From positions 3,076 to 67,075 of the forward strand of contig JANRKF010000026.1 of the NCBI GenBank assembly GCA_033763575.1: a stretch of DNA of 64,000 nucleotides, in the 5' to 3' direction. This document shows, in pieces, positions 4,942-60,308 of the stretch. The first letter of the stretch is position 1; every line of letters starts with the position of its first letter. A model generated the notes under the pieces. That model did no database searches, was not told where the DNA came from, and worked only from the letters and a program-made list of their open reading frames with translations. This stretch comes from Alphaproteobacteria bacterium. Its GTDB lineage: Bacteria; Pseudomonadota; Alphaproteobacteria; Rickettsiales; SXRF01. Both the position numbers and the translations under genes were made by a program.

Positions 4942-5055
4942 GAAATGAAGAAATGGAGAATTGAAGAATTGAAGAGCAGAGTAATATATTCTCAGCCTGA
5001 CGTTGTTGTTTTTTCTTATTTCTCCAATTCCTCAATTCCTCAATTCCTCAATTCC
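4942..5055. repeat. inverted pair of octamer tandem repeats (GAATTGAA / TTCCTCAA)
   Basis: gaaatgaa gaaatgga gaattgaa gaattgaa, spacer, tctccaat tcctcaat tcctcaat tcctcaat. Confidence 0.88.
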
Positions 5056-5063
5056 ACTTTTTT

Positions 5064-5696
5064 ATGACCCTCGCCATCATCGATTACGGTTCCGGTAATT
5101 TGCGCTCGGTGGCGAAGGCGTTTGAGCATGTGGCGGGGGGTGAGAAAATCCTGGTCACTTCCGATGCGAAGGAGGTGGTGGCGGCCAGCCGCATCGTGCT
5201 GCCGGGCGTGGGCGCGTTTGGCGATTGCATGAAGGGACTCGCCGCGCTTTCCGGCATGGTCGAAACGCTGCATGAGCAAGTCATGCAAAAGAAAAAAAAC
5301 TTCCTCGGCATTTGCGTCGGCATGCAGCTGATGTTTGAGCGTGGGCTGGAGCACGGCACGCATGAAGGGTTGGGGTGGTTAAAGGGAGAAGTCGTCCACC
5401 TTAACCATCAACTATCAACCATCAACCATCAACTAAAAATCCCGCATATGGGCTGGAACGCGCTTGACCTGAAGCGCGACCACCCGATCCTGCGCGGCGT
5501 GGGTGGCGGCGCGCATGTCTATTTCGTCCATAGCTACCACGCGAAGGCGAACGCCGCCGATATCCTCGCCACCACCGGCTACGGCGGCGACGTGACCGCG
5601 ATGGTCGGGCGCGACAACATGGTCGGCACGCAATTCCACCCGGAAAAAAGCCAGGCATCAGGGCTTGCCATTTTGCAGAATTTCCTCAGTATGTAA
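5064..5696 (+). CDS. hisH: imidazole glycerol phosphate synthase glutaminase subunit
   Basis: [37 protein letters not shown]. Confidence 0.97.
5403..5434. repeat. (AACCATC)n heptamer tract in frame in hisH
   Basis: aaccatc aactatc aaccatc aaccatc aact encodes [11 protein letters not shown]. Confidence 0.9.
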
Positions 5697-5700
5697 TGCC

Positions 5701-6234
5701 ATGGCTGTCCGTATAGAAAAAATAACCGAGTTCAAACATGCAGACCTCACCGAGCTGGTCACGGCGACGGAGGATGCGATTCGCGACGGCATCGGCTTCA
5801 ACTGGATGGTGCCACCGGGAAGGGACGTGCTCGAAAAATACTGGAACGGCGTGCTGGTCGTGCCCGACCGCATCTTGTTCGCAGGCCGGCTCGATGGCAC
5901 GCTCGCAGGCTCCATCCAGCTCATCAAGCCGGGCATCAGCAAGGAAACCTCGTCATTCGCAGCGAGCCTGGATGCCCATTTCGTGGCTCCCTGGGCACGC
6001 GGGCACGGCATGGCGAAACTGCTGCTCGAAGCGGCCGAACGCGAGGCGCGCAGCCTCGGATTCACCGTGCTCAAGCTCAGCGTGCGGCAAACGCAGGAGG
6101 CGGCGATTTCGCTTTATGAGGAAATGGGTTTTGTGCAGTGGGGCACCCTGCCGACTTACGAATATGTGAATGCGCAGATGATTGCCGGGCATTTTTATTA
6201 CAAGAACCTCGATCCGATCACGAGCTTGATATGA
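5701..6234 (+). CDS. GNAT family N-acetyltransferase
   Basis: FVAPWARGHGMAKLLL acetyl-CoA motif, AISLYEEMGF. Confidence 0.85.
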   Translation: MAVRIEKITEFKHADLTELVTATEDAIRDGIGFNWMVPPGRDVLEKYWNGVLVVPDRILFAGRLDGTLAGSIQLIKPGISKETSSFAASLDAHFVAPWARGHGMAKLLLEAAEREARSLGFTVLKLSVRQTQEAAISLYEEMGFVQWGTLPTYEYVNAQMIAGHFYYKNLDPITSLI

Positions 6235-6240
6235 ATTTAT

Positions 6241-6316
6241 CCCCGCATAAGCGTAGCGCATTGCGGGGTCCGGTATTGGTGCCGGACTCTGACCAGACCC
6301 CGCAACAAGTGCGGGG
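6241..6316. repeat. REP-doublet-like element copy 1
   Basis: CCCCGCA-taagcgtagcgcat-TGCGGGG tccgg ... ccaga CCCCGCAACAAGTGCGGGG. Confidence 0.88.
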
Positions 6317-6322
6317 TCTAAA

Positions 6323-7051
6323 ATGATCCTCTACCCCGCCATCGACCTCAAGGATAATCAATGCGTGCGGCTGCTGCGCGGCGACATGGACAAGGCCACC
6401 GTATTTTCCAAAACGCCTGCCGACCAGGCCGCCGAGTTTGAGGCAATGGGCTTTGAATGGCTGCATGTGGTCGACCTGAATGGCGCGTTCGAGGGGCAGC
6501 CCGTGAATAAAAACGCGGTGAAATCGATTCTCGCCAGCGTCTCGATGCCGGTACAGCTGGGCGGCGGTATCCGCAACATGCAGATGATTGCCGACTGGCT
6601 GGAAGCGGGGATTTCGCGGGTGATCCTGGGCACCATCGCGCTTAAAAACCCGCAGGTGGTAAAAGAGGCCTGCCGCCTGTTTCCCGACCAGATCGCCGTC
6701 GGTATCGATGCCAAGGACGGGCGGGTGGCGGTGTCCGGCTGGGCGGAGATTTCCGATAAAAAAGCCCTCGACCTCGCCAAACAATTTGAAGACGCCGGGG
6801 TCGCCGCCATCATCTATACCGACATCAGCAAAGACGGGGCGATGCAAGGACCAAACATTACCGAGACCGTAACGCTTGCGGAACAAATTTCCATTCCCGT
6901 CATCGCCTCCGGCGGCATCAGCAGCAACGCCGACGTCATCGCCTATAAAGAGCATGAATTTTCCGGTATCGGCGGGGTCATCATCGGCCGCGCACTTTAT
7001 GATGGCGCCATTAATCCGCAGGAAGTATTAGCCGCCACCAAGCAATCCTAA
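6323..7051 (+). CDS. hisA: ProFAR isomerase
   Basis: ILYPAIDLKD, LHVVDLNGA, QLGGGIR, YTDISKDG, IASGG. Confidence 0.97.
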   Translation: MILYPAIDLKDNQCVRLLRGDMDKATVFSKTPADQAAEFEAMGFEWLHVVDLNGAFEGQPVNKNAVKSILASVSMPVQLGGGIRNMQMIADWLEAGISRVILGTIALKNPQVVKEACRLFPDQIAVGIDAKDGRVAVSGWAEISDKKALDLAKQFEDAGVAAIIYTDISKDGAMQGPNITETVTLAEQISIPVIASGGISSNADVIAYKEHEFSGIGGVIIGRALYDGAINPQEVLAATKQS

Positions 7052-7615
7052 TAGACCTTTTTGATTCAGGAATTTTCCTTCCTGTCCGGGCTTGGGCACC
7101 TGGCGGAACTGAAGCTGGCAGTCGGCCTGCGACAACCGCGCCGTGTCATTCTCGAACACCGCGCTGCCGGTGCATTCGGTGCTGGAGCTGTAGCGCATAT
7201 TGACCGACACACCGCCCATCATATTCGCGCCATCGGCCCATTCGGCGGAGGTGAAACGGACTGCGCCGGTGTCGCTGTCAAGGCTTTCGAGCGATGGCGT
7301 GGTGCTGTAATCGGTGAGGCTGTAGAGAATATTATCGACAAACGTAATAAACCCGGCCTTGTCGAAATTCTCATCCATGGCCGGGCGCGTATTGCCGATG
7401 GAAAAGAAATGGACCGTGAGATGGATTTTCGCATCATCGGTAAGAAGCGCGGTGAGCGCCTCGCTTACCCTGGCGCGGTCTTTAGTCGCCACCGCGTCGG
7501 AAAAATTTTGCAGCGATACCTGCACTGCGCGTTTTTTTTCACCGCTGACATAATAAAACCCCATCGCCACCAGCAGGATAACAAGCGCCACCAGCAGAGG
7601 AACAATCGCTTTCAT
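7028..7615 (-). CDS. hypothetical protein with N-terminal signal/TM anchor
   Basis: MKAIVPLLVALVILLVAMGFYYV; directly follows gcdH; convergent overlap with hisA. Confidence 0.65.
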   Translation of the reverse strand: MKAIVPLLVALVILLVAMGFYYVSGEKKRAVQVSLQNFSDAVATKDRARVSEALTALLTDDAKIHLTVHFFSIGNTRPAMDENFDKAGFITFVDNILYSLTDYSTTPSLESLDSDTGAVRFTSAEWADGANMMGGVSVNMRYSSSTECTGSAVFENDTARLSQADCQLQFRQVPKPGQEGKFLNQKGLLGLLGGG

Positions 7616-7618
7616 GGC

Positions 7619-8809
7619 CTACTCGCTCGAAAACGCCTGCAGGCCGGTGATGGCGCGGCCTAAGATCAGCGCGTGGATGTCGTGCGTGCCCTCATAGGTA
7701 TTGACGCTTTCAAGATTCATCACATGGCGGATGACGTGATATTCGTCGGAAATGCCGTTGCCGCCATGCATGTCGCGGGCAGTGCGGGCGATGTCGAGCG
7801 CCTTTCCGGCATTGTTGCGTTTGATCATCGAGATCATTTCCGGCGCGCATTTATCCTCATCCATCAGCCGCCCCACCCGCAGGCACGCCTGCAAACCGAA
7901 GGCGATATCGACCATCATATCGGCGAGTTTCTTCTGGATGAGCTGGTTGGCGGCTAAGGGCTTCCCAAATTGTTTGCGTTCCATGGTGTAGCTGCGCGCT
8001 GCCTCATAGCAGAATTCCGCCGCGCCGAGCGCGCCCCAGCCGATGCCGTAACGCGCCTTGTTGAGGCAGGAAAACGGGCCTCTCAGGCCCGCGACATCGG
8101 GGAGCATATTTTCTGCGGGCACCTCAACGTCGCTCATCATAATCATGCCGGTGGCCGATGCCCGCAGCGAAAACTTGCCTTCGATTTTGGGCGCGGTAAG
8201 CCCCTTCATGCTCTTTTCCAGGATGAATCCCTTGATGGTGCCGTCGGGAATTTCCTTATCGCCGTGAAGCTTCGCCCACACCACGAACACATCGGCAACC
8301 GGCGAGTTGGTGATCCAGTTTTTGGCGCCGCTTATACGATAGCCGTCGGCGGTTCTGGTCGCACGCGTAATCATGCTGCCGGGGTCGGAACCATGGTCAG
8401 GCTCGGTAAGCCCGAAGCAGCCGATCAGCTCGCCGCTCGCCAGTTTCGGCAGGTATTTTTCTTTCTGCGCCTCGCTGCCGAACGCATAAATCGGGTGCAT
8501 GACCAGCGAGGATTGCACACTCATTGCCGACCGATAACCCGAATCCACCCACTCGATTTCCTTGCAGATAAGCCCGCTCGCCACATTCGAAAGCCCCGCG
8601 CAGCCATAGCCCTGAATGGTCGCGCCGAACAGCCCAAGTGCGCCCATTTCGCGCATGATTTCGACATCGAAACGCTCATGCCGGTTGGCCTCGATAATAC
8701 GCGGCAGGAGTTTTTCCCGCGCATAGGAACGCGTGCTTTGCTGCGCCATGCGCTCCTCGTCGGTGAGTTGCGCGTCGAACAGCAGCGGATCAAATGGATC
8801 GATAGTCAT
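7619..8809 (-). CDS. gcdH: glutaryl-CoA dehydrogenase
   Basis: [49 protein letters not shown]. Confidence 0.92.
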
Positions 8810-8810
8810 A

Positions 8811-9392
8811 TTATTTCCCCAGCAAGCGCCCGACATAGCGGGCAATCAGATCAATTTCGAGGTTGAGCATATCACCGATATTGCGTTCGCGGAAGCCGGT
8901 AACGCTCCATGTATGCGGAATAATATTCACGGTGAAACGATTGCCCGACACTTCATTCACGGTGAGCGATACGCCATCGAGCGCGACCGATCCTTTGGCC
9001 GCGATGAATTTCGCAAGTTCGGCGGGCGCTTCCAGTTCGAGCCGGTGCGAATCTTTTTCCGGCGTGATTTCAATGAGTGTCGCCAGCCCATCGACATGGC
9101 CGGAGACCATGTGCCCGTCAAGCGCCTCGCCAAGGCGCATGGCCCGCTCCAGATGCAGCCTGCTTCCCGCTTCCCAGCGCGGCGCGGTGCAGCGGAGCGT
9201 TTCGGCGGAAAGATTCGCCGTGAATGTTTCACCCTTCATGTCAGTAACCGTGAGGCAGCAGCCGTTGCAGGCGACCGAATCGCCGGGGCGCAACTCGCCC
9301 ATCGGCATATCGCAGGCGACGGCGATCGTCCAGTCGCCGGATTTTTCGCAACGCTCAACCGTTCCAAAATGACGAATAACACCCGTGAACAT
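8811..9392 (-). CDS. ribE: riboflavin synthase (alpha)
   Basis: MFTGVI start, [31 protein letters not shown]. Confidence 0.96.
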
Positions 9393-9455
9393 CACGCCTT
9401 CCTTAAAAGAAAATACCTGCCGCAATTGTTCGCATTTTTGGGAAGGCGTTGCAAT

Positions 9456-11731: not shown

Positions 11732-11778
11732 TTTACTCTCCTCAATGATGTGCTGCGGACCCCGCAACAAGTGCGGGG
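11689..11778. repeat. REP-doublet-like element copy 2, spanning kdsB end and kinase start
   Basis: CCCCGCCGGATGGCGGGG tctgg ... gga CCCCGCAACAAGTGCGGGG. Confidence 0.88.
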
Positions 11779-12539
11779 ATTAATTTCCTTGCTTTCTCTA
11801 AGCCTTCCGGCGTGTCCACCCCCAGCGGTACCGTATCGACCACCGCCACGTCAAGTCGCATTCCGGCTTCGAGCGCCCGGAGCTGTTCGAGTTTTTCCGC
11901 CTTCTCAAGCACGCTTGGCGGCAGCGAGACAAATGTTTCGAGCGCGGCGCGGCGATAGGCGTAAATGCCGATATGGTGATAATGCGGCCCTTCGCCATGC
12001 GGGATGAGGGAGCGGGAGAAATACAGGGCCTTGCCGGTTGCTGGTCTTTGGTCTTTGGTCTTTGGTTGCACCTGACTATTGACCAAAGACCCATGCCCCA
12101 TGACCACCTTCACCACCGCCGGATCGTTTCTTTCTTCATCGCTGGCAATCACTGCGGCAAGGGTGCCGATATCCACCAGCGGGTCATCGAGCAGCGCCGC
12201 CGCCGCACGGATAATATCCGGATCGAGCGTCGGCATATCGCCCTGTACATTAATGATAACATCGTATTTTTTTTCGGGATCGATTTGCAGGAGCGCCCGG
12301 TAGATACGGTCGGAACCGGAGGGAAGATCGGGGTCGGTCAGCACATATCTTCCACCGGCGGCCGCCACCGCATCGCCAATCTGCTGGCTGTCGCACGCCA
12401 CCGCCACATCACCGATCTTCGCGGCCAGCGCACGCTCCAGCACATGCACGATCATGGGCGCGCCGCCGATATCCGCAAGCGGTTTGTTCGGCAGGCGGGT
12501 GGAGGCAAGACGTGCCGGAATGAGAACCAGAGGATTCAT
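11742..12539 (-). CDS. kdsB: 3-deoxy-manno-octulosonate cytidylyltransferase
   Basis: [49 protein letters not shown]. Confidence 0.96.
12042..12105. repeat. inverted heptamer pair (TGGTCTT / GACCAAA-GACCCAT) in frame in kdsB
   Basis: tggtctt x3, spacer, gaccaaa gacccat gccccat gacc; peptide [20 protein letters not shown]. Confidence 0.87.
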
Positions 12540-12542
12540 CCC

Positions 12543-12610
12543 GTCATCCCGCATTTATTGCGGGATCTCCCTTTTGTTACGACGAGGCCCCGCAACAAGT
12601 GCGGGGTGAT
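12543..12610. repeat. REP-doublet-like element copy 3
   Basis: gtcATCCCGCATTTATTGCGGGAT ... CCCCGCAACAAGTGCGGGGtgat. Confidence 0.85.
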
Positions 12611-12728
12611 GTCCAGAATGAGCATAAGAGGATTCATAAAGCTTTAAACAATTCCTGATTGATTGAACATAGCCACCCTATTATAAAAGCAACCGAATTC
12701 TTTTCTATCCCTATCACAAAGAGTCTTT

Positions 12729-13283: not shown

Positions 13284-13332
13284 CCGGCAGCGGGCAAGCG
13301 TTCGCGCATGCCCCTGTATGTGGAGAGACACC

Positions 13333-13788: not shown

Positions 13789-13799
13789 GGAACGCTTCC

Positions 13800-14753: not shown

Positions 14754-16582
14754 TACCCGAAAGGACGATGACCGATAACCGAAAAGCAAGATTGCGTATT
14801 TTCTTTTCGATCATCGTAGCATCGGTCATCGGATCATCGGTCATCGGATCATCGGCGCAAGCTGCGCCGTCGCACTGCCTCTCGCTTTACGACCCCTGTA
14901 AATACCCCGCGAACTTTAGCCATTTCGATTATGTGAACCCGGACGCGCCCAAAGGCGGCAGCGTCAAGCTGGCCGATTCCGGCACGTTCGACAGCCTGAA
15001 CCCGTTTATATTGAAGGGCGTCAAGGCCCCGGCGGTTTCGATGATTTTCGATGCGCTGATGGTGTCCTCGCTCGATGAGCCGCAAAGCATGTATGGCCTG
15101 ATCGCCGAATCCGCCGACCTTAGCGCCGATAAAAGCCATATCGATTTTGTCTTGCGCAAAGAAGCGCGTTTTCATGACGGGACGCCGATTACCGCCGACG
15201 ACGTGGTGTTCTCCTTCGAAACGCTGATTACCAAGGGCGATCCCACCTACCGCATCATGCTGGCGCCGGTGAAAAGCGCCCAGAAAATCGACGCCCGCCA
15301 TGTGCGCTTCACGCTCGACAGGGAGGTGCGCGAGTCCGCCCTCATCGCGGCCTCCCTGCCGGTATTTTCCAAAGCCTATTACAGCAAAGTGGACTTTGAA
15401 AAAACCACGCTGGAGCCGCCGCTGGGAAGTGGCGCGTACAAAGTCCAGTCGGTCGATCCGGGGCGCGCCATCATCTATGAGCGGGTGAAAAACTACTGGG
15501 CGAAGAACCTGCCCTTCGCGCGCGGCCAATATAATTTCGATACCATACGCTATGATCTCTATCGCGATGAAAATGTCGCGCTCGAAGCGTTCAAATCCGG
15601 CCAGTATGATTTCCGCCGCGAATATGTCGCCCGCAACTGGGCCAAAGCCTACGACCACCCGGCGGTGAAAGATGGCCGCATCACCAAGCGCGACGTGCCG
15701 GATATGAGCCCGCAGGGGATGCAGGGTTTCGTTTATAACACCCGCAAACCCACCCTCTCCGACCGCCGGGTCCGCGAAGCGATCGGGCTGGCCATGGATT
15801 ATGAATGGCTGAATAAAACCATTTTCTACGGCGCCTATAAACGCAACCGCAGCTTCTTCGGCAATACCGATTTTGAGTCCAAGGGCAAGCCCTCCAAAGA
15901 AGAATTGGCGCTGTTGTCCCCCTATAAATCGAACCTGTCCCCTACCGTGTTCGAGCATGAATATGCCCCGCCTGTGACCGACGGTTCCGGCAACCCCCGC
16001 GAAAACCTGCTCAAGGCACAGGCGCTGCTCAATGAAGCGGGCTGGAAGGTAGAGGGTGGCAAGCGCATGAAAAACGGCCAGCCGCTCACCATCGAATTCA
16101 TGCTGCGCCAGCCGACCATGGAGCGCGTCATCGGCCCGATGCGGAAGAACCTGGAACGCCTGGGCATCACCAGCTCCATCCGCATGGTCGACGATTCGCA
16201 ATACCAGAAACGCATCGATGAAAAAGATTTCGACATCGTCTCGCTGTGGATCAATCGCGGGCTGTTTTACCCCGGCAATGAGCAGGTGGCATTGTGGCAT
16301 AGCTCACAGGCTGATGTGAAGGGCGGCAACAATCTGGCCGGCGCGAAAAACCCGGCGGTGGATGCCGCGCTCGCCGCGCTCATCGGCGCTAAAAACAAAG
16401 GCGAGCTGGTCGCCGCCGGACGGGCGCTCGACCGCATTTTGCTCTGGGAAAATTATGTGATACCGAACTGGCAGTCGGCATCATTCCGCATCGCCTACTG
16501 GAATAAATTCGGCATGCCGCCCACCCCGCCTAAATACGGCCTGGCCTTTGAAAGCTGGTGGATAAGGTCAGATGACAGGTGA
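14750..16582 (+). CDS. yejA: peptide ABC transporter substrate-binding protein (YejA-like)
   Basis: HFDYVNPDAPKGG, TFDSLNPFILKG, PLGSGAY, RALDRILL; start may be 14768. Confidence 0.9.
   Translation: MIPERTMTDNRKARLRIFFSIIVASVIGSSVIGSSAQAAPSHCLSLYDPCKYPANFSHFDYVNPDAPKGGSVKLADSGTFDSLNPFILKGVKAPAVSMIFDALMVSSLDEPQSMYGLIAESADLSADKSHIDFVLRKEARFHDGTPITADDVVFSFETLITKGDPTYRIMLAPVKSAQKIDARHVRFTLDREVRESALIAASLPVFSKAYYSKVDFEKTTLEPPLGSGAYKVQSVDPGRAIIYERVKNYWAKNLPFARGQYNFDTIRYDLYRDENVALEAFKSGQYDFRREYVARNWAKAYDHPAVKDGRITKRDVPDMSPQGMQGFVYNTRKPTLSDRRVREAIGLAMDYEWLNKTIFYGAYKRNRSFFGNTDFESKGKPSKEELALLSPYKSNLSPTVFEHEYAPPVTDGSGNPRENLLKAQALLNEAGWKVEGGKRMKNGQPLTIEFMLRQPTMERVIGPMRKNLERLGITSSIRMVDDSQYQKRIDEKDFDIVSLWINRGLFYPGNEQVALWHSSQADVKGGNNLAGAKNPAVDAALAALIGAKNKGELVAAGRALDRILLWENYVIPNWQSASFRIAYWNKFGMPPTPPKYGLAFESWWIRSDDR
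14809..14855. repeat. TCATCGG/GATCATCG tract in yejA signal peptide, with inverted arm near 14766-14781
   Basis: catcggtcatcggatcatcggtcatcggatcatcgg encodes SVIGSSVIGSS. Confidence 0.8.
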
Positions 16583-16644
16583 CAGGCGACGGGTGACAGG
16601 TATAATCATTTTCATCTGACACCCTGATCCTGACACCTGACACC
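16566..16644. repeat. imperfect inverted heptamer pair (TGACAGG / CCTGACA) at yejA-yejB junction
   Basis: tgacagg tgacagg cgacggg tgacagg ... ctgacac cctgatc ctgacac ctgacac. Confidence 0.85.
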
Positions 16645-17754
16645 ATGACTGCATACATAATCCGCCGCATATTATTTATGATACCCACCCTGTTCGGTAT
16701 CATGGTGCTGAATTTCCTCATTGTGCAGGCCGCCCCCGGTGGCCCGGTGGAACGGATGGTGGCACAGCTCACCGACATCACCAGCGCCCATGACGCGACG
16801 GCCCGCCTCTCCGGCAGCGGCTCGGATTCGGGTGCGGCGAGCCAGTCGCTGATGCGTTCCGGCGGTGATTCGCTCTATCGCGGCGGGCGCGGGCTGGATC
16901 CCGACCTCATCAGGGACATCGAGAAAATGTACGGCTTCGACAAGCCGCCGCTCGACCGCTTCCTGCAGATGATCGGCAACTATCTCCGCTTCGATTTCGG
17001 CGAGAGTTTTTACCGCAACGAGCGGGTCATCACGCTCATCATGAACACCCTGCCGGTCACCATCTCGCTCGGGCTGTGGACCACGCTTATCACCTATCTT
17101 GTCTCCATTCCGCTCGGCATCAGGAAAGCCGTGCGCGACGGCAGCGCCTTCGATATCGCAAGCAGCTGGATCATCATCATCGGCTATGCCATCCCGAGCT
17201 TCCTGTTCGCCATTTTACTGATTATCGTCTTTGCCGGCGGTGGCTATTTCCAATGGTTCCCGCTCAAGGGCCTCACCTCCGACAATTGGGCCGAACTCAG
17301 CCCGCTCGCCAAAATCGGCGATTATTTCTGGCATATCGCCCTGCCGGTCACCGCCATGGTCATCAGCGGCTTCGCGTCACTCACCATGCTCACCAAAAAC
17401 TGCTTCCTCGATGAAATCTCCAAGCAATATGTGCTGACCGCCCGCGCCAAGGGCTTAAGCGAGCGCGAGGTGCTCTATGGCCATGTGTTCCGCAACGCCA
17501 TGCTGATCGTGATCGCCGGGTTTCCGGGCGCATTGCTGTCCATCCTGTTTCGCAGCGCCCTTTTGATCGAGATTATTTTTTCGCTGAACGGGCTGGGATT
17601 GCTCGGCTACGAGGCGGTGGTCGGCCGCGATTACCCGGTGATGTTCGGCACGCTGTATATTTTCACGCTGCTCGGCCTCGTCTTCGGCCTGATCGGCGAC
17701 ATCGTCTATATGCTGGTCGACCCGCGCATCGATTTTGAAAAGAGGGCGATATGA
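16645..17754 (+). CDS. yejB: peptide ABC transporter permease
   Basis: [42 protein letters not shown]. Confidence 0.93.
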
Positions 17755-18770: not shown

Positions 18771-20413
18771 GCGCCCTCCTCTCCATTTCCCATTTCTCGC
18801 TGTCCTTTGGGGAGAGCCGCATCATCAGGGATATTTCGCTCGACATTTGGCCCGGCGAGATGGTGGCGATAGTCGGCGAATCCGGCTCCGGCAAGTCGCT
18901 TACCGCCCTCTCCTGCCTTGGATTGCAGCCAGCGGGTGCGCAGGTAAGTGGTGAAATTATGCTGGATGGCTACTCCCTCCCCATTAGGGGGAGGGTCGGG
19001 GTGGGGGCATCCACGGGTGATAGTGCAAATAATGCCCCCCTCCCAACCTCCCCCCTACAGGGGGAGGAGCTAAGGGCCCTCCGCGGGAAAACCGCCAGCA
19101 TGATTTTCCAGGAGCCGATGACGGCGCTGAATCCGCTGCACCCGATTGGCAAGCAGATCGGGGAGATGCTGAAGAAGAATAGCTCGATCACCCAATCATC
19201 CGATCATCGGATCATCATGCTTTTGGAAGAAGTCGGCCTCTCCCACCTCGCCTCCCGGCTTGGCGCCTATCCGCATGAGCTTTCCGGCGGCGAGCGCCAG
19301 CGGGTGATGATTGCCATGGCGATTGCCAATTCGCCGAAACTGCTGATTGCCGATGAACCTACCACCGCCGTCGACGTCACCATACAGGCGAAGATACTGA
19401 AATTACTGAAAGAACTACAAAAAACGCGCAATATGGCCATGATGTTCATCACCCATGACATCACGCTGGTGCGCAAGCTGGCCGACCGCGTGGTGGTGAT
19501 GAAATCCGGCGAGATCGTGGAACAAGGCAAGGTATCCGAGGTTTTCTCGCGCCCGCAGCATCCCTATACCCACGAACTGCTGGGTTCCGAGCCCAAAGGC
19601 ACCATGCCCCCCCTGCCCGCCAATGCGCCGGTTGCGCTTTCCTGCGAGGGGCTCAAAGTACATTTCCCGGTCAAAACCGGCCTGCTGCGCCGCACCACCG
19701 GATTTATCAAAGCCGTGGACGGCATATCCGTTACGATACCGGAATCCTCGACGCTGGGAATCGTAGGTGAATCCGGTTCCGGCAAGAGTACGCTCGGATT
19801 CGCCCTGCTGCGACTGGTAAAAAGCGAAGGCAAAATCGTCTGGCTGGGACGCGACATCGCCACGCTTTCCTCCGCCGCCATGCGCCCACTGCGAAAGGAA
19901 ATGCAACTGGTATTCCAGGACCCCTACTCCAGCCTGAACCCGCGCATGACGGTCGGCGACATTATCGGCGAAGGATTGCGTGTCCACCGAGTACCGAGTA
20001 CCGAGTACAGAGTACGTATCGCACGCGCGATAGAAGAAGTCGGGCTCTCGCCTGATATGGCCGAACGCTACCCCCATGAATTTTCCGGCGGTCAGCGCCA
20101 GCGCATCGCCATCGCCCGCGCCATGATATTAAAGCCACAATTCGTGGTGCTCGACGAGCCGACCTCGGCGCTCGATTTGACCGTGCAGACGCAAATCATC
20201 GCGCTGCTTAAGGATTTCCAGATTAAATACGGCATCAGCTACCTGTTCATCAGCCATGATTTGCGCGTGGTGAGGGCCATTGCGCACCATATCGCCGTGC
20301 TGTATAAGGGCGAGATGGTAGAATATGGAAAAGCGAGCGATATCCTGACGCATCCGGCGCAGGACTATACCAGACGGCTGATCGAAGCGGCAATGTTCAA
20401 AGGGGAAGCATAA
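18767..20413 (+). CDS. yejF: peptide ABC transporter dual ATPase
   Basis: Two GESGSGKS Walker A and SGGERQR/SGGQRQR motifs; ATGA overlap with yejE. Confidence 0.93.
   Translation: MSALLSISHFSLSFGESRIIRDISLDIWPGEMVAIVGESGSGKSLTALSCLGLQPAGAQVSGEIMLDGYSLPIRGRVGVGASTGDSANNAPLPTSPLQGEELRALRGKTASMIFQEPMTALNPLHPIGKQIGEMLKKNSSITQSSDHRIIMLLEEVGLSHLASRLGAYPHELSGGERQRVMIAMAIANSPKLLIADEPTTAVDVTIQAKILKLLKELQKTRNMAMMFITHDITLVRKLADRVVVMKSGEIVEQGKVSEVFSRPQHPYTHELLGSEPKGTMPPLPANAPVALSCEGLKVHFPVKTGLLRRTTGFIKAVDGISVTIPESSTLGIVGESGSGKSTLGFALLRLVKSEGKIVWLGRDIATLSSAAMRPLRKEMQLVFQDPYSSLNPRMTVGDIIGEGLRVHRVPSTEYRVRIARAIEEVGLSPDMAERYPHEFSGGQRQRIAIARAMILKPQFVVLDEPTSALDLTVQTQIIALLKDFQIKYGISYLFISHDLRVVRAIAHHIAVLYKGEMVEYGKASDILTHPAQDYTRRLIEAAMFKGEA
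18973..19069. repeat. GC-rich palindromic element in frame in yejF
   Basis: CTCCCTCCCC.ttaGGGGGAGGGtcGGGGTGGGGG...CCCCCCTCCCaaCCTCCCCCtacaGGGGGAGGAG encodes SLPIRGRVGVG...PLPTSPLQGEE. Confidence 0.85.
19185..19216. repeat. (CGATCATC)n octamer tract in yejF
   Basis: cgatcacc caatcatc cgatcatc ggatcatc encodes SITQSSDHRII. Confidence 0.75.
19986..20015. repeat. (ACCGAGT)n heptamer tract in yejF
   Basis: accgagt x3, acagagt; encodes HRVPSTEYRVR; same unit as in xerD. Confidence 0.9.
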
Positions 20414-20955: not shown

Positions 20956-22254
20956 ATGGCCAGCGATACTATCTTCGCCCTTGCCACGCCGCCCGGGAAA
21001 TCCGGCGTCGCTGTGCTGCGGATTTCGGGGAAGGGGGCGTTACCGACACTGCAACAACTCACTGGCAAGCGTGAGTGGACGCCAAATAAACTTACTTACT
21101 CACCACTCACAACTCAGCACTCAGCACTCATCGACCATGGCATGGCGGTCTATTTTAAAGCCCCAAAAAGCTTCACCGGGGAAGAGGTGGTGGAATTGCA
21201 TATCCATGGCAGCCTTGCCGTCATTCGTGAGCTGCTGGGGATATTGGAAAGCCTTCCCGGCCTGCGTCCCGCCGAGCGGGGAGAATTCACCCGCCGGGCG
21301 CTCTTAAACGGCAAAATGGATTTACTGGAAGTGGAGGGGCTGGCCGACCTGATCGACGCCGAAACCAGCGAGCAGAAATCACAGGCGCTGCGGCAGCTCC
21401 AGGGGGAGTTGAGCGGTTTTTATGAGCGGCTGCGCAAGGAAATCATCGCGACGCTCGCCCATCTGGAAGCTTACATCGATTTTCCCGATGAGGAGATTCC
21501 GGAATCGGTGCTTCTGGGCATGGATAAAGAGGTGAGGGCGGTGATGCAGACCATCGCGGCCACGCTTGAAAAACATGCCGACGGCGAGCGCATCCGCAAC
21601 GGGATTTCGATAGTGATACTGGGCGCGCCGAACTCCGGTAAATCGAGCCTTATCAATGCATTATCAAAGCGCGAGGCGGCGATTGTCTCGCACCACGCAG
21701 GCACCACGCGTGACCTCATCGAAGTCCATATGGAAATTGCCGGCTATCCGGTGATTCTGGTGGATACGGCGGGCATCCGCGAAAGCGACAACGACATCGA
21801 AGCCGAGGGCATCCGCCGCGCCATCGCCCGCGCCGAACATGCCGATATCCGGCTGGTATTGTTCGATGGCACCCAGGCACCCGATGCCGCCAGCCTCAGG
21901 CTGCTGGGCGAGGGTGCAATCGCCGTTTCAACCAAATCCGACCTTAAAAAAGGCGGGCAGGGGCTCGCCATCTCCACACAGACGGGGGAGGGCATCTCCG
22001 AACTCCTCACCCTGCTCGAAACACGCATTGTGGAAAGTTTCTCAGGCGAGGGGGCGCTGATCACCCGCAGCCGCCATCGCGGGCTGTTGCAGCAGGCCAG
22101 CCGCCATCTGGAGGCGTTTTTTGAACCGGCCGAACTGGAGCTGAAATGCGAGGAACTGCGGCTTGCCGCCGGCTCCATCGCGAAAATCACTGGAAAAATA
22201 GCGGTGGATGATGTATTAGACGTTGTTTTCCGGGAATTTTGTATTGGGAAATGA
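20956..22254 (+). CDS. mnmE: tRNA modification GTPase
   Basis: DTIFALAT, SFTGEEVVE, GAPNSGKSS, GTTRD, DTAG, FCIGK. Confidence 0.97.
   Translation: MASDTIFALATPPGKSGVAVLRISGKGALPTLQQLTGKREWTPNKLTYSPLTTQHSALIDHGMAVYFKAPKSFTGEEVVELHIHGSLAVIRELLGILESLPGLRPAERGEFTRRALLNGKMDLLEVEGLADLIDAETSEQKSQALRQLQGELSGFYERLRKEIIATLAHLEAYIDFPDEEIPESVLLGMDKEVRAVMQTIAATLEKHADGERIRNGISIVILGAPNSGKSSLINALSKREAAIVSHHAGTTRDLIEVHMEIAGYPVILVDTAGIRESDNDIEAEGIRRAIARAEHADIRLVLFDGTQAPDAASLRLLGEGAIAVSTKSDLKKGGQGLAISTQTGEGISELLTLLETRIVESFSGEGALITRSRHRGLLQQASRHLEAFFEPAELELKCEELRLAAGSIAKITGKIAVDDVLDVVFREFCIGK
21091..21130. repeat. (ACTCACC/ACTCAGC)n heptamer tract in mnmE
   Basis: actcacc actcaca actcagc actcagc actca encodes YSPLTTQHSAL. 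Confidence 0.85.
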
Positions 22255-45565: not shown

Positions 45566-45569
45566 CTGG

Positions 45570-46772: not shown

Positions 46773-46839
46773 TTTCTTATACTCCTTCTAATCGCGACTG
46801 CGAGTAGGGTTGGTGTGGCGGCTACGAGCAGTCGCGCAC

Positions 46840-47802
<963 letters not shown>

Positions 47803-47883
47803 TCATGTTAAAGAAGCACCGAGCATAGAGCGTTGGATTTAAGAGAAGGTTAATAACGCAAGTTATATTCCGGGACAACCCGC

Positions 47884-49608: not shown

Positions 49609-49691
49609 GCCACCGGCATAACGGAAAAAGCGCCGGCTGTCACTATGAGCGTGAATGGAAAAATGAAGCCGTCATGGACGGTGATTTACCC

Positions 49692-50459: not shown

Positions 50460-50465
50460 GGGCGA

Positions 50466-51763: not shown

Positions 51764-51774
51764 GATATAATCAC

Positions 51775-51865
51775 GGGCTATGAGTCATGTGTCATGCGTT
51801 TCTAACAAATCATGCGAAACTGCGCAACCAACAACTCATGACCCGCAACCCATGACTCATGACTC
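51775..51865. repeat. inverted heptamer pair (GTCATGA / CATGACT) at alr-mlaE junction
   Basis: gggctat gagtcat gtgtcat gcgtt ... actcatg acccgca acccatg actcatg actc. Confidence 0.8.
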
Positions 51866-54404: not shown

Positions 54405-54472
54405 GAGCGTTCATTCGACAAATGGAGATTTGAAGGTAATCCTAGCCCCATGCCGTCCGTCATGCAAGTGGC

Positions 54473-55435: not shown

Positions 55436-55444
55436 AACATTCTC

Positions 55445-55900
55445 CTATATTGTGAAGTCCAGTTTTTCTTCGGCGTGTTTTTTGATCTGTTTTTCCGACG
55501 CCTGCTCGCATAATGCGGCAAGGTTGACGTTTTCCAGCGTATCGAGCCAGACGGCAGTCGCTTTTTCCCATACCGGCATCACGATATTTTTTCCAAGCGG
55601 TGTGGCAGCGTAATTGCCGCCTTCCTTATTGCTATCTTCTTCCTGCAGCACCGTGCAGATATCGGCCAGCGAAATCCTCCGCCGCTCCTTTGCCAGCACA
55701 TAACCGCCTTTCGGGCCGCGAATGCCGCGCAATATGCCCGCATGCACCAGCTTCTGCATCAGCCCTTCCAGATAGCGCGGCGGAAGATGCTGCTTGGCGG
55801 CAATGTCGCGGCTGGAAATCGCCCCGCCCGACGTATTGTAGGCGATATATAACACCGCCTCCATCGCGCAAAACAGTTTGTTGGGAGCCATGGACATCAT
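55445..55900 (-). CDS. Rrf2 family transcriptional regulator
   Basis: [23 protein letters not shown]; ATGA overlap with dut. Confidence 0.92.
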
Positions 55901-56352
55901 GCTGTTTTCTTCACCCCCGTCGAGCCGAAGCCGCCCTCGCCGCGTGCCGTGTCGTCGAGCTTTTCCACCGGCGTCCACTGCACCTGCGATACCGGCGCAA
56001 TCACCATCTGCGCGATGCGGTCGCCACGCGAAATATTCACCTCTTCGCTGCCGAGATTAATCAGCAGCACTTTGATCTCGCCACGGTAATCGGCGTCGAT
56101 GGTGCCGGGCGAATTGAGCAGCGTGATGCCGGATTTAAGCGCGAGGCCGGAACGCGGACGGAGCTGCGCCTCGAAACCGCGTGGCAGGGCGATCATGATC
56201 CCGGTGGGAACCAGCATGCGCTGCATCGGTGCCAGCCGCAGGTCCGAGCCGATGGCCGCCATCAGGTCAACCCCGGCGCTGTCCGTGGTCGCATAGGCCG
56301 GAAGCGGCAGGTTTTCCGCGTGCGGCAGCTGGGTGATTTGTACGTCGGTCAT
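55897..56352 (-). CDS. dut: dUTP diphosphatase
   Basis: [32 protein letters not shown]. Confidence 0.97.
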
Positions 56353-56993
56353 GATGCGCTCCGTTGTTTGAGTATTTCTTCGGCCAGTTTTTCGGCGATC
56401 TGTATTTTGCTCATGCGCGGCCAGCGCTCTTCACTGCCTTTTTTGATGAGGATGATCTGGTTGTCGTCCTTGCCGAAGGCCTGGCCCTCGGAGACGTCAT
56501 TGGCGATCATCCAGTCACAGCCTTTGCGTTTCAGTTTGCCTTGTGCATTTTGCTCCACCATTTCCGTTTCGGCAGCGAAACCGATAACGATTTCCGGGCG
56601 GTGCGTCGGATGGCTGGCGATATGGGCGAGGATGTCCGGGTTTTCGATCAGCGCGAGCTGCGGCACATCGCCGCTCGCCGCTTTTTTGAGTTTCTGCGCC
56701 GAAGGTTTCGACACGCGCCAGTCGGCGACGGCGGCGGCGCACACCGCGATGTCCACCGGCAGGCAGCGTTCGCAGGCGGCGAGCATTTCCTCGGCGGTTT
56801 CCACATGCACCACATTCATATGTTCAGGGTCGGGCAGCGCGGTCGGGCCGGAGACCAGCGTCACCTCCACCCCCGCTTTGGCGAGCGCGGCGGCGATGGC
56901 ATGGCCCTGCTTGCCCGACGAGCGGTTGGTGATATAGCGCACCGGGTCGATGGGCTCCTGCGTCGGGCCGCTTGTCACGAGCGCTTTCATCAC
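56349..56993 (-). CDS. coaB: phosphopantothenate--cysteine ligase (stand-alone)
   Basis: [38 protein letters not shown]. Confidence 0.92.
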
Positions 56994-57517
56994 TTCATTC
57001 CCAACGCAGCAATAATGGTCTCGACATCCGCCATCCGGCCCGCGCCGATTTCACCGCAGGCCAGCGCGCCGCTTTCAGGCTCGATGATTGACACACCATC
57101 TTTTTTGATCTGCTCGATATTGCGTTTGGTCGCCGGATGCGCCCACATTTCCTTGTTCATCGCCGGTGCTACGAATAACGGCCGGGTGTTTGCAAGCAAG
57201 GTGGCGGTGGCGAGATCGTCGGCAAAACCGTGGGCCATTTTGGCGATGATGTCGGCGGAGGCAGGAGCCACGATGACCAGGTCGGCCTCGCGGGCAAGGC
57301 GGATATGGCCCATCTCAGCCTCGTCTTTCAGGCTCCACAGGTCGGTATATACCGGATTTTCCGAAAGCGCCGCCACCGACATGGGCGTGACGAACTGCGC
57401 ACCACCCGCCGTCACAATGCAGCGCACATTGAGGCCGCGCTCGCGCAGGCGGCGGATTAAATCGAGTGATTTATAGGCGGCGACGCTGCCGGAAATAATG
57501 AGAAGGATGTTTTTCAT
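56990..57517 (-). CDS. coaC: phosphopantothenoylcysteine decarboxylase (stand-alone)
   Basis: SGSVAAYK, GHIRLAR, APAMN, LACGE.G.GRM. Confidence 0.92.
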   Translation of the reverse strand: MKNILLIISGSVAAYKSLDLIRRLRERGLNVRCIVTAGGAQFVTPMSVAALSENPVYTDLWSLKDEAEMGHIRLAREADLVIVAPASADIIAKMAHGFADDLATATLLANTRPLFVAPAMNKEMWAHPATKRNIEQIKKDGVSIIEPESGALACGEIGAGRMADVETIIAALGMK

Positions 57518-57623
57518 GTGAAATAATATATTATACGCGTGAACCGTGTAAATAGAGCATTATGGGCGGTTTTACAAGTTTCAAGATGACGAAAGCAAAA
57601 AAATGGCTATATTGGCCAGCCTT

Positions 57624-58160
57624 ATGACCGATATTGTCTATGATATTCCCACCAGGAGCGATGTAGAAAGCCGCCATACCCTCGCCGTGCTGGTGGATAA
57701 CGAATTCGGCGTGCTGGCCCGCGTCATCGGGCTTTTCTCCGGCCGTGGCTATAACATCGAATCGCTGACCGTGGCCGAGGTGGAGCATGAGAGCAAGCGT
57801 TCACGCATCACGATTGTGACGAGCGGCACCGAGGTGGTCATCGAGCAGATCAAGCGCCTGCTGGAGCGGATGGTGCCGGTGTATAAGGTGCATGACCTCA
57901 CGGTCGAAGGGCCACATGTGGAGCGTGAGCTGGCGCTGGTGAAAATCGTCGGTGGGGAAGATACGCGGCTGGAGGCGCTGCGCATCGCCGATATTTTCCG
58001 GGCGAAGGTGGTCGATTCCACCAGCGAATCCTTTGTGTTCGAGCTGACCGGCGAGCTGGCCAAGATCGATGAGTTCATCGCACATCTGCGCCCGCTGGGG
58101 CTTGCGGAAATCTGCCGCACCGGTGTCGCCGCCATGAGCCGCGGCAAACAACCGATTTAG
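57624..58160 (+). CDS. ilvN: acetolactate synthase small subunit
   Basis: LVDNEFGVLARVIGLFSGRGYNIESLTV, ERELALVK. Confidence 0.95.
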   Translation: MTDIVYDIPTRSDVESRHTLAVLVDNEFGVLARVIGLFSGRGYNIESLTVAEVEHESKRSRITIVTSGTEVVIEQIKRLLERMVPVYKVHDLTVEGPHVERELALVKIVGGEDTRLEALRIADIFRAKVVDSTSESFVFELTGELAKIDEFIAHLRPLGLAEICRTGVAAMSRGKQPI

Positions 58161-58213
58161 TCTTTGGTCTTTCGTCGCTGGTCTTTGGATAATTTACCAT
58201 CGACCATCTACTA
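58157..58213. repeat. heptamer pair (TGGTCTT / ACCATCG) between convergent ilvN and dapB
   Basis: tagtctt tggtctt tcgtcgc tggtctt tgg ... accatcg accatct acta. Confidence 0.72.
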
Positions 58214-58981
58214 ATTCAGTACATCCCGCATGGAATAGAGGCCGGGCTTTTGCTTTTTGGCCCAGAACGCGGCGGCCAGCGCTCCTTTCGCATAAATCTC
58301 GCGGGAAAAGCCCTGGTGTTTCAGCTCCAACACTTCGCCGCCGCCAGCGAAGGTGACGGTGTGAATGCCCACCACATCGCCGCCGCGTGCTACCGAGAAA
58401 CCAATATCACCGGGTTTGCGGAGGCCATCGCGGTCGATGGATTTTTTATCGGCGAGCGCGACACCACGCCCACGGGCGGCGGCCTCACCCAGCATCAGCG
58501 CCGTACCCGATGGCGCATCTTTTTTGTGTTTATGATGCATCTCGAAAATTTCGATGTCGACATCGTCGGCCAGTTTCCTCGCCGCTTCCTCGACCAGCCG
58601 CTCCAGCAGATTCACACCCAGCGAAAAATTACCCGACTGGACGATGCATGCCTTATGCGCAAAACCCGCCAGTTTTTTCTGTTCCTCGGCAGAAAAACCG
58701 GTGGTGCCGACAATATGGATGCCGCCTTTGGCGCTTACTGCTTCGGCAATCGCTAGTGTGTGGGCAGGCGAGGTGAAATCGATCACCGCATCGGCAGCAT
58801 TCACCAATGTCTGCACATCCGGCGTAATAAAAATATGCGAAGCGCCGAGCGCCGCAAGCCGCGCCGCATCCACCGCGCCCTGTTCGCTGCCGGCGGCGAG
58901 TGTGAAACGCTCATCGGCCAGTGTCGCTGTAATTAATGTCTGGCCCATCCGGCCAAGGCAGCCTGCAATCGCAATTTTCAT
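58211..58981 (-). CDS. dapB: 4-hydroxy-tetrahydrodipicolinate reductase
   Basis: GCLGRMG, GTTG, EMHHKHKKDAPSGTA. Confidence 0.96.
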   Translation of the reverse strand: MKIAIAGCLGRMGQTLITATLADERFTLAAGSEQGAVDAARLAALGASHIFITPDVQTLVNAADAVIDFTSPAHTLAIAEAVSAKGGIHIVGTTGFSAEEQKKLAGFAHKACIVQSGNFSLGVNLLERLVEEAARKLADDVDIEIFEMHHKHKKDAPSGTALMLGEAAARGRGVALADKKSIDRDGLRKPGDIGFSVARGGDVVGIHTVTFAGGGEVLELKHQGFSREIYAKGALAAAFWAKKQKPGLYSMRDVLN

Positions 58982-58991
58982 AGATTCTCCT

Positions 58992-59082
58992 CGTCATTGC
59001 GAGCGTAGCGAAGCAATCCAGAAAATCAAGGTGGGATTGGCAAGATGGATTGCCACGTCGCCTATGGCTCCTCGCAATGACG
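58992..59082. repeat. GTCATTGCGAG...CTCGCAATGAC palindromic element
   Basis: cgtcattgcgag cgtagcgaagcaatcca ... tggattgc cacgtcg...ctcgcaatgacg; partial relative at 26787-26863. Confidence 0.85.
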
Positions 59083-59083
59083 C

Positions 59084-60238
59084 CTATTCGCGGGTTCCCC
59101 AGAATTCCTTCATCTTCGAGAAGAATTTTTCGCTTTGCGGGCTGGTGTGGCTTTCATCATCCAGCTTTTCGAATTCCTTGAGCAGCTCGCGTTGTTTTTT
59201 GGAAAGCTTGGTCGGGGTTTCGATCTGCGCGTGCAGATACATATCGCCACGGTGGCTGCTGCGTAAAACTGAGAAACCCTTGCCCTTCACGCGGAACTGG
59301 TGGCCCGCCTGCGTGCCTTCCGGAATGGTAACTTTCACCCTGCTGCCGTCGATGGTCGGCATTTCGACGCTGCCGCCCATGATGGCGGTGGTCATTTTGA
59401 TCGGCACGGTGCAATGGATGTCGGCGCCTTCGCGCTCGAAGATCGGGTGGGGTTTGACCGCGAGGAAGATGTAGAGATCGCCGGACGGGCCGCCGCGTGC
59501 GCCCGCCTCGCCTTCCCCGGCCAGCCGGATGCGGGTGCCTTCCTCCACGCCCGCCGGGATATTGACCGAGAGGGTTTTTTCCTTGCGGGTGCGCCCGGTG
59601 CCCGCGCAGTTTTTGCAGGGGTTTTTGATGACCTTGCCGCTTCCCTGGCAGCTATGGCAGGTGCGCTCGACGGTGAAAAATCCCTGGCTGGCGCGCACGC
59701 GGCCCACGCCGCCGCACGCCCCGCACATTTCCGGCTTGGAGCCTTTTTCCGCGCCTGAGCCGTGACATACTTCGCAGGAAACTGCCGTCGTCACCTTGAT
59801 CGATTCATTTTTGCCTTTGAAAGCTTCTTCCAGCGAGATTTGCAGGTTATAGCGCAAATCGGCGCCACGCGCTGCCTGTTGCTGTCCGCTAGCGCGCCGT
59901 CCGCCGCCACCACCAAACGCGCCGCCGAACAAATCCTCGAAAATATCGGAGAAGCTGCCGGAGAAATCAAACCCGCCTGCGCCCGCTCCACCTGCACCAC
60001 CCATGCCGCCTTCAAACGCGGCATGTCCCATGCGGTCATAGGCCGCACGTTTTTGCGGGTCGGAAAGAATGTCGTAAGCGTGGGATGCTTCCTTGAATTT
60101 TTCCTCGGCTTTTTTATCGCCGGGGTTGCGGTCGGGATGCAGCTGCATGGCGAGCTTGCGATAGGCTTTTTTCAGCTCATCGTCACTGGCGTTTTTGGCA
60201 ACGCCGAGCACTTCATAGAAATCTTTTTTATCGGCCAT
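59084..60238 (-). CDS. dnaJ: chaperone DnaJ
   Basis: HPD, G/F region, four CxxCxGxG repeats. Confidence 0.98.
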
Positions 60239-60248
60239 GGGAGAATAA

Positions 60249-60308
60249 TGGTGGTTGGTTGATGGTTGATAGTGCAATTACCATCAACCATCAACGATCA
60301 ACTGACTA
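60249..60308. repeat. inverted heptamer pair (GGTTGAT / ATCAACC) at dnaK-dnaJ junction
   Basis: ggttgat ggttgat agt ... accatca accatca acgatca act. Confidence 0.87.

Follow-up and report, generated by a model that had tools for sequence, protein, structure and literature searches.

The DNA analysed here (the window) is a stretch of 64,000 nucleotides, positions 3076-67075 of contig JANRKF010000026.1 (C26) in the 1.94-Mb assembly GCA_033763575.1 of an alphaproteobacterium of the Rickettsiales (35 contigs, 55.6% G+C, completeness 92%; hereafter G000). At eleven sites in the window a tandem array of 7- or 8-nt units is followed, after a spacer of 6-46 nt, by an approximately reverse-complementary array. 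The original prediction, made from the letters alone, had read these tracts as hairpin elements that conserve architecture rather than sequence and always carry the G-richer arm first. We found paired tracts at all eleven sites, and in 11/11 the 5' arm had more G than C and the 3' arm more C than G; the hairpins share layout and polarity and differ in their units. Each element was divided in two at its optimal point, and its 5' portion was aligned with the reverse-complemented 3' portion, with 200 shuffles of the latter as control. Ten of the eleven outscored all 200 shuffles, the site at 58157 being marginal, and the arms are thus more complementary than shuffled tracts, as had been proposed. 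None of the eleven loops contained an open reading frame (ORF).

Two congeners of G000, G001 and G002, share the gene order of the window at a DNA identity of about 75%, and relative to them the window hairpins are insertions. Seven of the sites measure 65-137 nt in G000 vs 1-19 nt in G002, and where the site lies in a gene the difference is a multiple of three. Three of the eleven hairpins are in frame within genes, a status that the original prediction missed. Site 12042 (12043..12105; GGTCTTT 7-mer arms; pairing 19/24, score 28 vs a shuffle maximum of 20) is an in-frame insert in a CMP-KDO synthetase-like (kdsB-like) gene on the minus strand (11742-12554, Pfam CTP_transf_3), where G000 has 65 nt and G002 has 5 nt, a difference of 60 nt or 20 codons. 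Site 33366 (33366..33482, plus strand; GAATTGAR 8-mer arms; pairing 25/29, score 42 vs 20) lies in yggS (33040-33786) and encodes EELKKW...IPQFLNSS. Site 41002 (40999..41077, minus strand; GAGGAATT 8-mer arms; score 34 vs 24) lies in priA (40187-42253, minus strand; PriA domains) and measures 90 nt in G000, as compared to 18 nt (G002) and 15 nt (G001) in the congeners. The priA hairpin is also missing from a metagenome contig of about 97% identity, in which 29 other letters replace positions 40989-41092; metagenome contigs were short and of low depth, and this one, bridging the priA site, was the only one used. Some of the insertions are old and shared, as illustrated by the GAATTGAR insert in yggS, which occupies the same site in G017 and G013, two genomes of other genera, and is absent from most of the 29 relatives with a match. 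Others are lineage-specific, as with GGTCTTT arrays, which matched 31 times in G000 and at most once in any of 30 relatives.

The remaining sites lie at gene junctions. Site 4942 (4938..5058; GAATTGAR 8-mer arms at 4938-4975 and 5021-5058 around a 45-nt loop; pairing 30/38, score 44 vs a shuffle maximum of 26) occupies the spacer from an upstream gene (end at 4930) to hisH (start at 5064); in G002 this spacer measures 9 nt, and in G001 25 nt. In G002 the upstream stop and the hisH start overlap as ATGA, and G000 has ATGA on either side of the hairpin (window 4926-5064). The repeated ATGA could represent a target duplication of 4 nt or the outcome of selection for keeping the two genes intact. 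No target-site duplication was evident in the seven filled/empty comparisons, in which the junctions are blurred and congener DNA identity is only about 75%. Site 16566 (16567..16649; TGACAGG/CTGACAC arms; 25/33, score 27 vs 18) fills the gap from a solute-binding-protein gene (SBP_bac_5), whose stop at 16582 falls within the 5' arm, to a permease gene starting at 16645; 76 nt in G000 correspond to 1 nt in G002. The intergenic site 34183 (34184..34245; GGTCGCTA/GGTTGCT 8-mer arms; 21/26, score 32 vs 20) has 78 nt vs 13 nt. Site 42248 (42254..42335; AGTCTTT/GGTCTTT arms; core pairing 16/20, score 24 vs 21) reaches, between two minus-strand genes, from the stop of an HIT gene (42333) to the point where priA starts (42253), with 91 nt vs 19 nt, and site 42681 (42688..42774; GGTCATG arms; 20/23, score 34 vs 21) from the start of the HIT gene (42686) to the stop of the upstream minus-strand gene (42779), with 98 nt vs 2 nt. 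Two further sites lie between minus-strand genes. The first, 51775 (51782..51865; GAGTCAT/CATGACT arms; 17/19, score 30 vs 28), corresponds to 68 nt of unrelated spacer in G002, and the second, 60249 (60251..60302; GGTTGAT arms; 19/23, score 30 vs 21), to a hairpin of equal length (63 nt) built of another unit (GTGTGAG...CTCACAC) and likewise G-first. The marginal site 58157 (58157..58214; 13/18, score 16 vs 18) lies between convergent genes and consists of a GGTCTTT array whose complementary partner is weak.

The same arrangement recurs throughout the genome. Period-7 arrays numbered 155 in G000 vs 19 in a codon-block shuffle and period-8 arrays 39 vs 8, and period-5 arrays in G000 showed no excess over this shuffle. 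A reverse-complement partner within 130 nt was found for 98/194 period-7/8 arrays, as compared to 5 in the reversed and 14 in the complement control. The resulting 70 paired elements (first measure) comprised 63 G-first, 2 C-first and 5 ties, and the 69 elements left after de-duplication (second measure) 65 G-first and 4 C-first. In a strict inverted-repeat scan, tandem-type hairpins were 28 G-first and 1 C-first, and ordinary hairpins 156 G-first, 121 C-first and 50 ties. Both clear C-first cases belong to one 8-mer family, ACCAGATG/ATCTGGTY, with a unit that is nearly self-complementary and a G-C skew of almost nil. The polarity does not depend on the strand that is read, because the reverse complement of a G-first hairpin is again a G-first hairpin; it is an intrinsic two-state property for which about 50:50 is the right chance expectation, and the genome-wide ratio is far from this, as the window had led the original prediction to expect. 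The elements are scattered singly among housekeeping genes, and in many of them the hairpin fills the whole stop-to-start gap. Integron gene cassettes (attC) stand in same-orientation arrays beside an integrase and have conserved core sites. A long ORF with coding-like GC content at third codon positions (GC3) on both sides spans 21 of the 69 elements, all 21 G-first, and the three window cases in yggS, the kdsB-like gene and priA are among these.

The unit sequences are diverse. We counted 85 distinct phased heptamer units in G000, with no shared consensus of the repetitive extragenic palindromic (REP) type. They form a network of single-base neighbours, and the unit 'families' are therefore not fully independent. 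The AC(C/T) core suggested earlier reflects a real enrichment, as GGT occurs in 84/155 G-oriented heptamer units (54%) vs 20% of random heptamers and RGT in 67% vs 27%, but it is not a rule.

The heptamer excess of prokaryotes has been ascribed to polymerase slippage (PMC4679880 and PMC4692102, citing Mrazek 2007). The hairpins could be independent paired microsatellites, produced by replication slippage together with intrastrand template switching or templated insertion, and four-helix-bundle genes such as those described below would be small selfish genes of separate origin that home into their loops, making the hairpins targets rather than relics. We regard this as unlikely, though as a reading to be taken seriously. 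Heptamer arrays are in excess by themselves (155 vs 19), and 71 arrays of G000 have no partner, 49 of them inside genes (sense strand C/A-rich in 34, G-rich in 15). Units also often resemble their flank, as with GGTCATA beside the GGTCATG arrays at 42681, AAGGAATTG beside the GAATTGAA arrays in yggS and ACCATGAC beside the CCTGACA arrays at 16566. However, slippage alone predicts neither inverted pairing nor fixed polarity, and identical orders of variant units recur at separate loci (C6:62854 vs C11:50983; C35:17918 vs C1:18777). In addition, the two arms differ systematically in eight GAATTGAR copies, of which at least two have a T/A-run loop. As judged from the sequences, the shared unit orders and the arm difference in the GAATTGAR copies would point to copying between loci and not to growth in place.

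A wider search for inverted pairs in G000 gave two G-first pairs, 363 and 402 nt apart, each around a small gene of low GC3; no other small gene was enclosed by inverted pairs 131-5000 nt apart. These two genes (C2:32115-32429 and C21:39485-39799) are exactly the two matches of G000 to PF05635 (23S_rRNA_IVP), and both are flanked by G-first arrays of GGTCTTT and GGTTGTT. They lie on contigs outside the window, and the earlier statement that the window holds no candidate enzyme was correct. Their products match TIGR02436 ('four helix bundle protein') with 126.7 and 115.4 bits, and the first matches Xcc0516 (2GSC) with E=1.6e-21. The cargo gene thus encodes a 120-130-aa protein of the PF05635/TIGR02436, or 23S rRNA intervening-sequence protein (S23p), family, which is Avd-like. 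We examined 22 PF05635 genes from seven genomes, namely the two of G000 and 20 of 53 other match rows (all seven of G013, all five of G017, four of G001, both of G002 and the top match each of G015 and G019). Inverted arms above all 100 shuffles surrounded 20/22 (both G000 copies and 18/20 in the six relatives), and of the other two one had borderline arms and one had none. The arms stand 354-421 nt apart and consist of 7-8-nt units that differ from copy to copy, and the order in all 20 armed cassettes is G-rich arm 5', C-rich arm 3'. Units of ORF-less hairpins recur as cassette arms: GAATTGAG in G013 and G017, CTAGGTT in G001 and GGGGATT in G017. Taken together, this shows that hairpin and cassette are one class with one polarity.

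Among four truncated remnants of the gene, two had clear arms 147-206 nt apart, one had borderline arms and one had none. Such remnants between arms fit decay better than the homing of genes into loops that the slippage explanation requires, and with these truncated intermediates and the gene-bearing G-first pairs the earlier suggestion that the hairpins are 'empty ends of small cargo cassettes' has gained support. PF05635 genes numbered 2, 5, 7 and 5 in the hairpin-rich genomes G000, G001, G013 and G017, and 0 and 1 (a weak match) in the hairpin-poor G007 and G030.

Among the candidate cargoes named beforehand, the four-helix-bundle gene was borne out. Two other kinds of small gene, DUF559 and GIY-YIG, also stand between inverted repeats: both DUF559 genes and 5/6 small GIY-YIG genes of G000 have such repeats above all shuffles, 275-350 nt apart (C14:19935-20386, C24:19940-20494, C15:39234-39604, C35:125864-126243, C24:134808-135168, C15:5007-5380 and C24:138756-139126). 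Their arms are, however, neither tandem arrays nor of consistent G/C polarity, and several arms are themselves small hairpins; this looks like a second and a third kind of small-gene cassette.

The closest known counterpart is the intervening sequence (IVS) of 23S rRNA in Coxiella, Leptospira, Salmonella and others, which likewise has a terminal inverted-repeat stem around a loop with a PF05635 gene. In the Coxiella IVS the terminal stem is 28 bp long and is cleaved by RNase III; this IVS also carries an S23p ORF and, at its 5' side, three tandem GACAGAT heptamers whose number varies between strains (PMC4990558), and in the same paper IVSs are regarded as selfish, with their way of moving unknown. 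Long-stem terminal inverted repeats of this kind were present at 10/11 window sites and around 20/22 PF05635 genes; an S23p ORF in the loop is absent from the eleven window hairpins and present in the C2 and C21 copies. The location in a 23S rRNA helix is not shared, as the sites here lie between or inside protein-coding genes (the rRNA genes of the assembly were outside the comparison). The elements here also differ in being mostly gene-less, in having arms that are almost wholly tandem 7-8-nt arrays, and in not being known to be cut by RNase III. On the slippage reading, homing of the genes into hairpin loops would resemble the position of IVSs at the tips of rRNA helices. PF05635 has been described as resembling Avd, the accessory protein of diversity-generating retroelements (DGRs), and the cargo protein is a homologue in this four-helix-bundle family, reported to be pentameric (PMC10053308). 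Nonetheless the G000 cargo proteins score 38.4 and 31.5 bits on the Avd model, under its cut-off of 80, and no reverse transcriptase, template repeat or variable repeat adjoins the cargo gene. PF05635 genes have also been placed between cas genes such as cmr3 and cmr2 (PMC3936711).

Heptamer arrays resembling the ones here are known from Xanthomonas, where GGGAATC arrays are mostly intergenic, differ in length and sequence between related species and often form opposite-strand pairs termed 'convergent', of which there are 70 in Xcc and 75 in Xac (Rehm et al. 2015, PMC4692102). Convergent pairing corresponds to the G-first order, which 63/70 paired elements of G000 have. In Xanthomonas a single G-quadruplex-capable unit dominates, while dozens of units occur here and few are G4-capable, and the cited portion of that paper describes neither a link to a cargo gene nor whole hairpins in frame within genes (PMC4692102). 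The TAACTGA direct repeats of Beggiatoaceae, cyanobacteria and Bacteroidetes lie near gene starts in one orientation (MacGregor 2015, PMC4679880), are found inside ORFs only in the stop-free orientation and are scattered over distant phyla (PMC4679880). They differ in consisting of a single unit, in forming no hairpin and in being direct in nearly every case, with one inverted example among 170 sets (PMC4679880). A literature search outside subscription journals found no paper with 16-nt arrays of the two main units except unrelated primers, and none linking PF05635 genes to heptamer inverted arrays except the Coxiella IVS paper (PMC4990558). G-first pairing itself was thus reported earlier, as the 'convergent' heptamers of Xanthomonas (PMC4692102); new here are the in-frame hairpins inside genes, the sites empty in congeners and the shared arms around the four-helix-bundle gene.

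Rickettsia palindromic elements (RPEs) are short palindromic repeats without a known transposase that are inserted in frame in genes of a small alphaproteobacterial genome, as the elements here are in 21/69 cases. RPE families have a conserved consensus of about 100-150 bp and are not tandem 7-8-nt arrays, and we know of no cargo-bearing full form of an RPE. REP sequences and the hairpins formed by paired REPs (REPINs) are dispersed short intergenic palindromes of conserved sequence that depend on a gene for a REP-associated tyrosine transposase (RAYT); the elements here differ in having diverse units, and no Y1 transposase was found in G000. That the hairpins are REP/REPIN-like sequences moved by a RAYT, or classical MITEs (miniature transposable elements with inverted repeats) moved by a DDE transposase encoded elsewhere, is the least probable of the explanations weighed here. 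They are dispersed, short, palindromic and non-coding, and their presence or absence differs between species. On the other hand, there is no terminal sequence common to all families and no evident target-site duplication at the seven blurred junctions, dozens of unit families would require as many transposase specificities, and the full form carries a four-helix-bundle gene and not a known transposase. The RAYT candidate of the original prediction also failed: Y1_Tnp/RAYT (PF01797) gave no match in G000 (92% complete), G001, G013 or G017, a search that did not extend to DDE transposases, and the 4/31 relatives that were positive include none that is hairpin-rich. Nor did the reverse transcriptase candidate hold, as RVT_1 was found in G000, G002, G007 and G017 and not in G001 or G013, so that its presence does not track hairpin abundance; G002 has few hairpins. 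The sole reverse transcriptase of G000 is a 349-aa ORF (C19:4192-7803) beside phage-like and helix-turn-helix genes, and contains LGNQTSQ, which may resemble the DGR-type motif. SbcD was found in none of the 31 genomes and hence does not separate hairpin-rich from hairpin-poor ones. MutL was present in 31/31. Open frames around mutL span 679 aa in G000, 676 aa in G001 and 761 aa in G017 vs about 595-630 aa in most relatives, and 628 aa in the hairpin-rich G013; the longer frames of the first three could reflect in-frame inserts.

The loops of the 69 elements are 61% A+T, as compared to 44% for the genome, and 19/69 contain a run of at least five A or T vs 7.6% of random windows; among the in-gene loops that have such a run and whose strand is known, it consists of A in the sense direction in 7/7, giving lysine codons. 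AT-rich loops of this kind, together with arms that are independent in copy number and unit order and the lack of an evident target-site duplication at seven junctions, would suit scars of double-strand-break healing, the other mechanism named in the original prediction. In such a process G-rich repeats would be added to both 3' ends and the ends then joined, as in head-to-head telomere fusions; whichever strand is read, the resulting inverted pair has its G-rich arm 5'. It can also be reasoned that a strand-symmetric polarity needs a process acting alike on both ends or strands. Yet we found neither a template nor an enzyme (a reverse transcriptase is present in G000 and not in the hairpin-rich G001 and G013), unique-sequence loops are not predicted, and both the gene in the loop with arms in 20/22 cases and the variant-unit orders common to separate loci are left unexplained. 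We therefore hold break healing to be very improbable. The polarity may be caused at the level of DNA synthesis.

The elements fold strongly as RNA, and the folding check proposed with the original prediction gave a median z of -5.3 vs shuffles, with z < -2 in 99% of the 69 elements. Such folding would be in line with functional RNA elements under selection, i.e. terminators, mRNA stabilisers or protein-responsive switches. In one version a cold-shock protein binds the G/U-rich 5' arm during transcription and so competes with the stem, and synthesis of the protein-binding arm ahead of its partner would provide a rationale for the polarity. In the GTCTTTG register, the commonest unit equals the high-affinity heptanucleotide reported for CspB of B. 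subtilis, 5'-GTCTTTG/T-3' (PMC1904285). This identity (window 12043-12066, and genome-wide) may be coincidence. We find this line of explanation improbable, as most window sites are empty in congeners of the same gene order, 21 elements lie within coding sequence, most other units do not fit the CspB consensus and counts of cold-shock-domain genes do not track hairpin abundance (G000 1, G002 2). RNA-level selection was rejected because the sense transcript has no excess of wobble over A.C mismatches, G.U-type vs A.C-type being 12 vs 26 in genes and 29 vs 32 between genes. A T-tract after the stem in the sense of the neighbouring genes was seen in 5/34 intergenic elements vs 5% of random windows, and on either strand in 11/48; a role as intrinsic terminator was rejected, since most elements have no U-tract directly after the stem.

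Together, these observations lead us to the view that the window hairpins are probably, though far from securely, ORF-less derivatives of IVS-like cassettes and members of a population of about 70 elements, which later spread or persisted as non-autonomous copies. The short hairpins would have arisen from cassettes through loss of the gene, and the gene-less forms may then have spread or persisted in the manner of MITEs, with arm units that drift by slippage while the architecture stays. The G-first rule could be a class-wide property that makes insertion tolerable in either orientation, for which there is partial support. Whichever strand is read, a gene start would be directly preceded by a C/A-rich arm that is nearly free of start codons, and the G/T-rich arm, with its many start and stop codons, would be placed behind the stop of the upstream gene. 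In G000 we counted 0.098-0.106 start codons per nt in G-arms and 0.007-0.017 in C-arms, with a genome background of 0.048; stop codons differed only modestly, occurring between genes in a mean of 1.59 of the three frames of the G-arm vs 1.23 of the C-arm. Because the element is G-first, the start-codon-poor arm precedes the next gene in either orientation, and the asymmetry accords with intergenic sites in each of the four gene arrangements. With in-gene hairpins the argument works only if they are drawn from a pool that is already G-first. The elements themselves are read as selfish or neutral.

Polarity and arrays are not confined to this genome. Per array, G-first to C-first ratios were 25:0 in G013, 8:1 in G017 and 11:6 in G001, the six C-first arrays of G001 being near-palindromic 8-mers, and pairs were almost absent from G002, G007 and G030. 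Exact arrays of two window units, GGAATTGA and GGTCTTT, were scanned in other phyla, with no control unit alongside, and gave at least 118 and at least 120 stretches. The matches listed come from Desulfobacterota, Bacteroidota, Acidobacteriota (many Pyrinomonadaceae), Mesorhizobium, Chloroflexota, Planctomycetota, the Candidate Phyla Radiation and others, and several contigs of one genome often carry them. Among these matches near partners were G-first in 33 + 44 = 77 cases and C-first in 1 + 4 = 5, hairpins with both arms exact being counted twice, and a four-helix-bundle gene lay within 3/10 of the longer G-first pairs. Most of the same-unit arrays listed have no nearby gene, which counts in favour of the slippage reading.

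Several observations weigh against a derivation of the hairpins from cassettes. G000 has only two full cassettes vs about 70 hairpins, and most of its unit families (GAATTGAR, CAGGTGA, GGTCATG and others) have no full copy in it. G002 has two PF05635 genes yet few hairpins, and among the matches listed in other phyla a four-helix-bundle gene was found at only 7/238 array-bearing loci. A full cassette would break a gene, and the 21 in-frame hairpins must therefore have arrived already short; entry of short copies into genes needs a mobility for which no machinery was found. Host-gene compatibility alone cannot account for the G-first order in all 21 of these. The three most similar cross-genus cassette pairs lie at orthologous positions between host proteins of 80-96% identity, and hence reflect vertical descent and not movement. 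An arm's own partner is its best match in 22/69 elements only, and the reverse direction, in which genes enter the loops of pre-existing hairpins, yields identical pictures. Two further ideas were discarded on the same data: concerted evolution of the arms, by the 22/69 count, and specific recognition as the cause of protein-arm covariation, which is explained by the orthologous position of the cassettes.

Apart from the hairpins, the window contains five partnerless heptamer arrays in frame within genes, located in an integrase-family gene (3552-3583), hisH (5403-5433), an ABC ATPase gene (19986-20015), mnmE (21098-21130) and priA (40364-40398).

Two old puzzles meet in these elements, namely why those of 7 nt are the most frequent among the long simple repeats of bacteria, and what the nature and way of spreading of rRNA IVSs with their S23p gene may be. 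Should the paired arrays be ends of IVS-like cassettes, both become testable by comparative genomics and by binding assays with a small protein of solved fold. As a wider and still doubtful proposal, the heptamer/octamer excess of prokaryotes might for the most part be the trace of a single widespread and unrecognised class of small mobile cassettes that includes the 23S rRNA IVSs. Its full form would carry an Avd-like four-helix-bundle gene, and a process of fixed chemical polarity, with the G-rich strand 5' on both strands, would build or maintain its arms. The protein, which forms rings, might act on the tandem units, perhaps together with a reverse transcriptase in trans, and hairpins and many solo arrays would be relics able to enter genes in frame. 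For the organism, the peptide segments added to YggS, KdsB and PriA are a source of protein variation, and strong stems at operon junctions could affect expression. The elements also break short-read assemblies and blur gene calls, the latter since one strand of the C-rich arm reads as an open frame.

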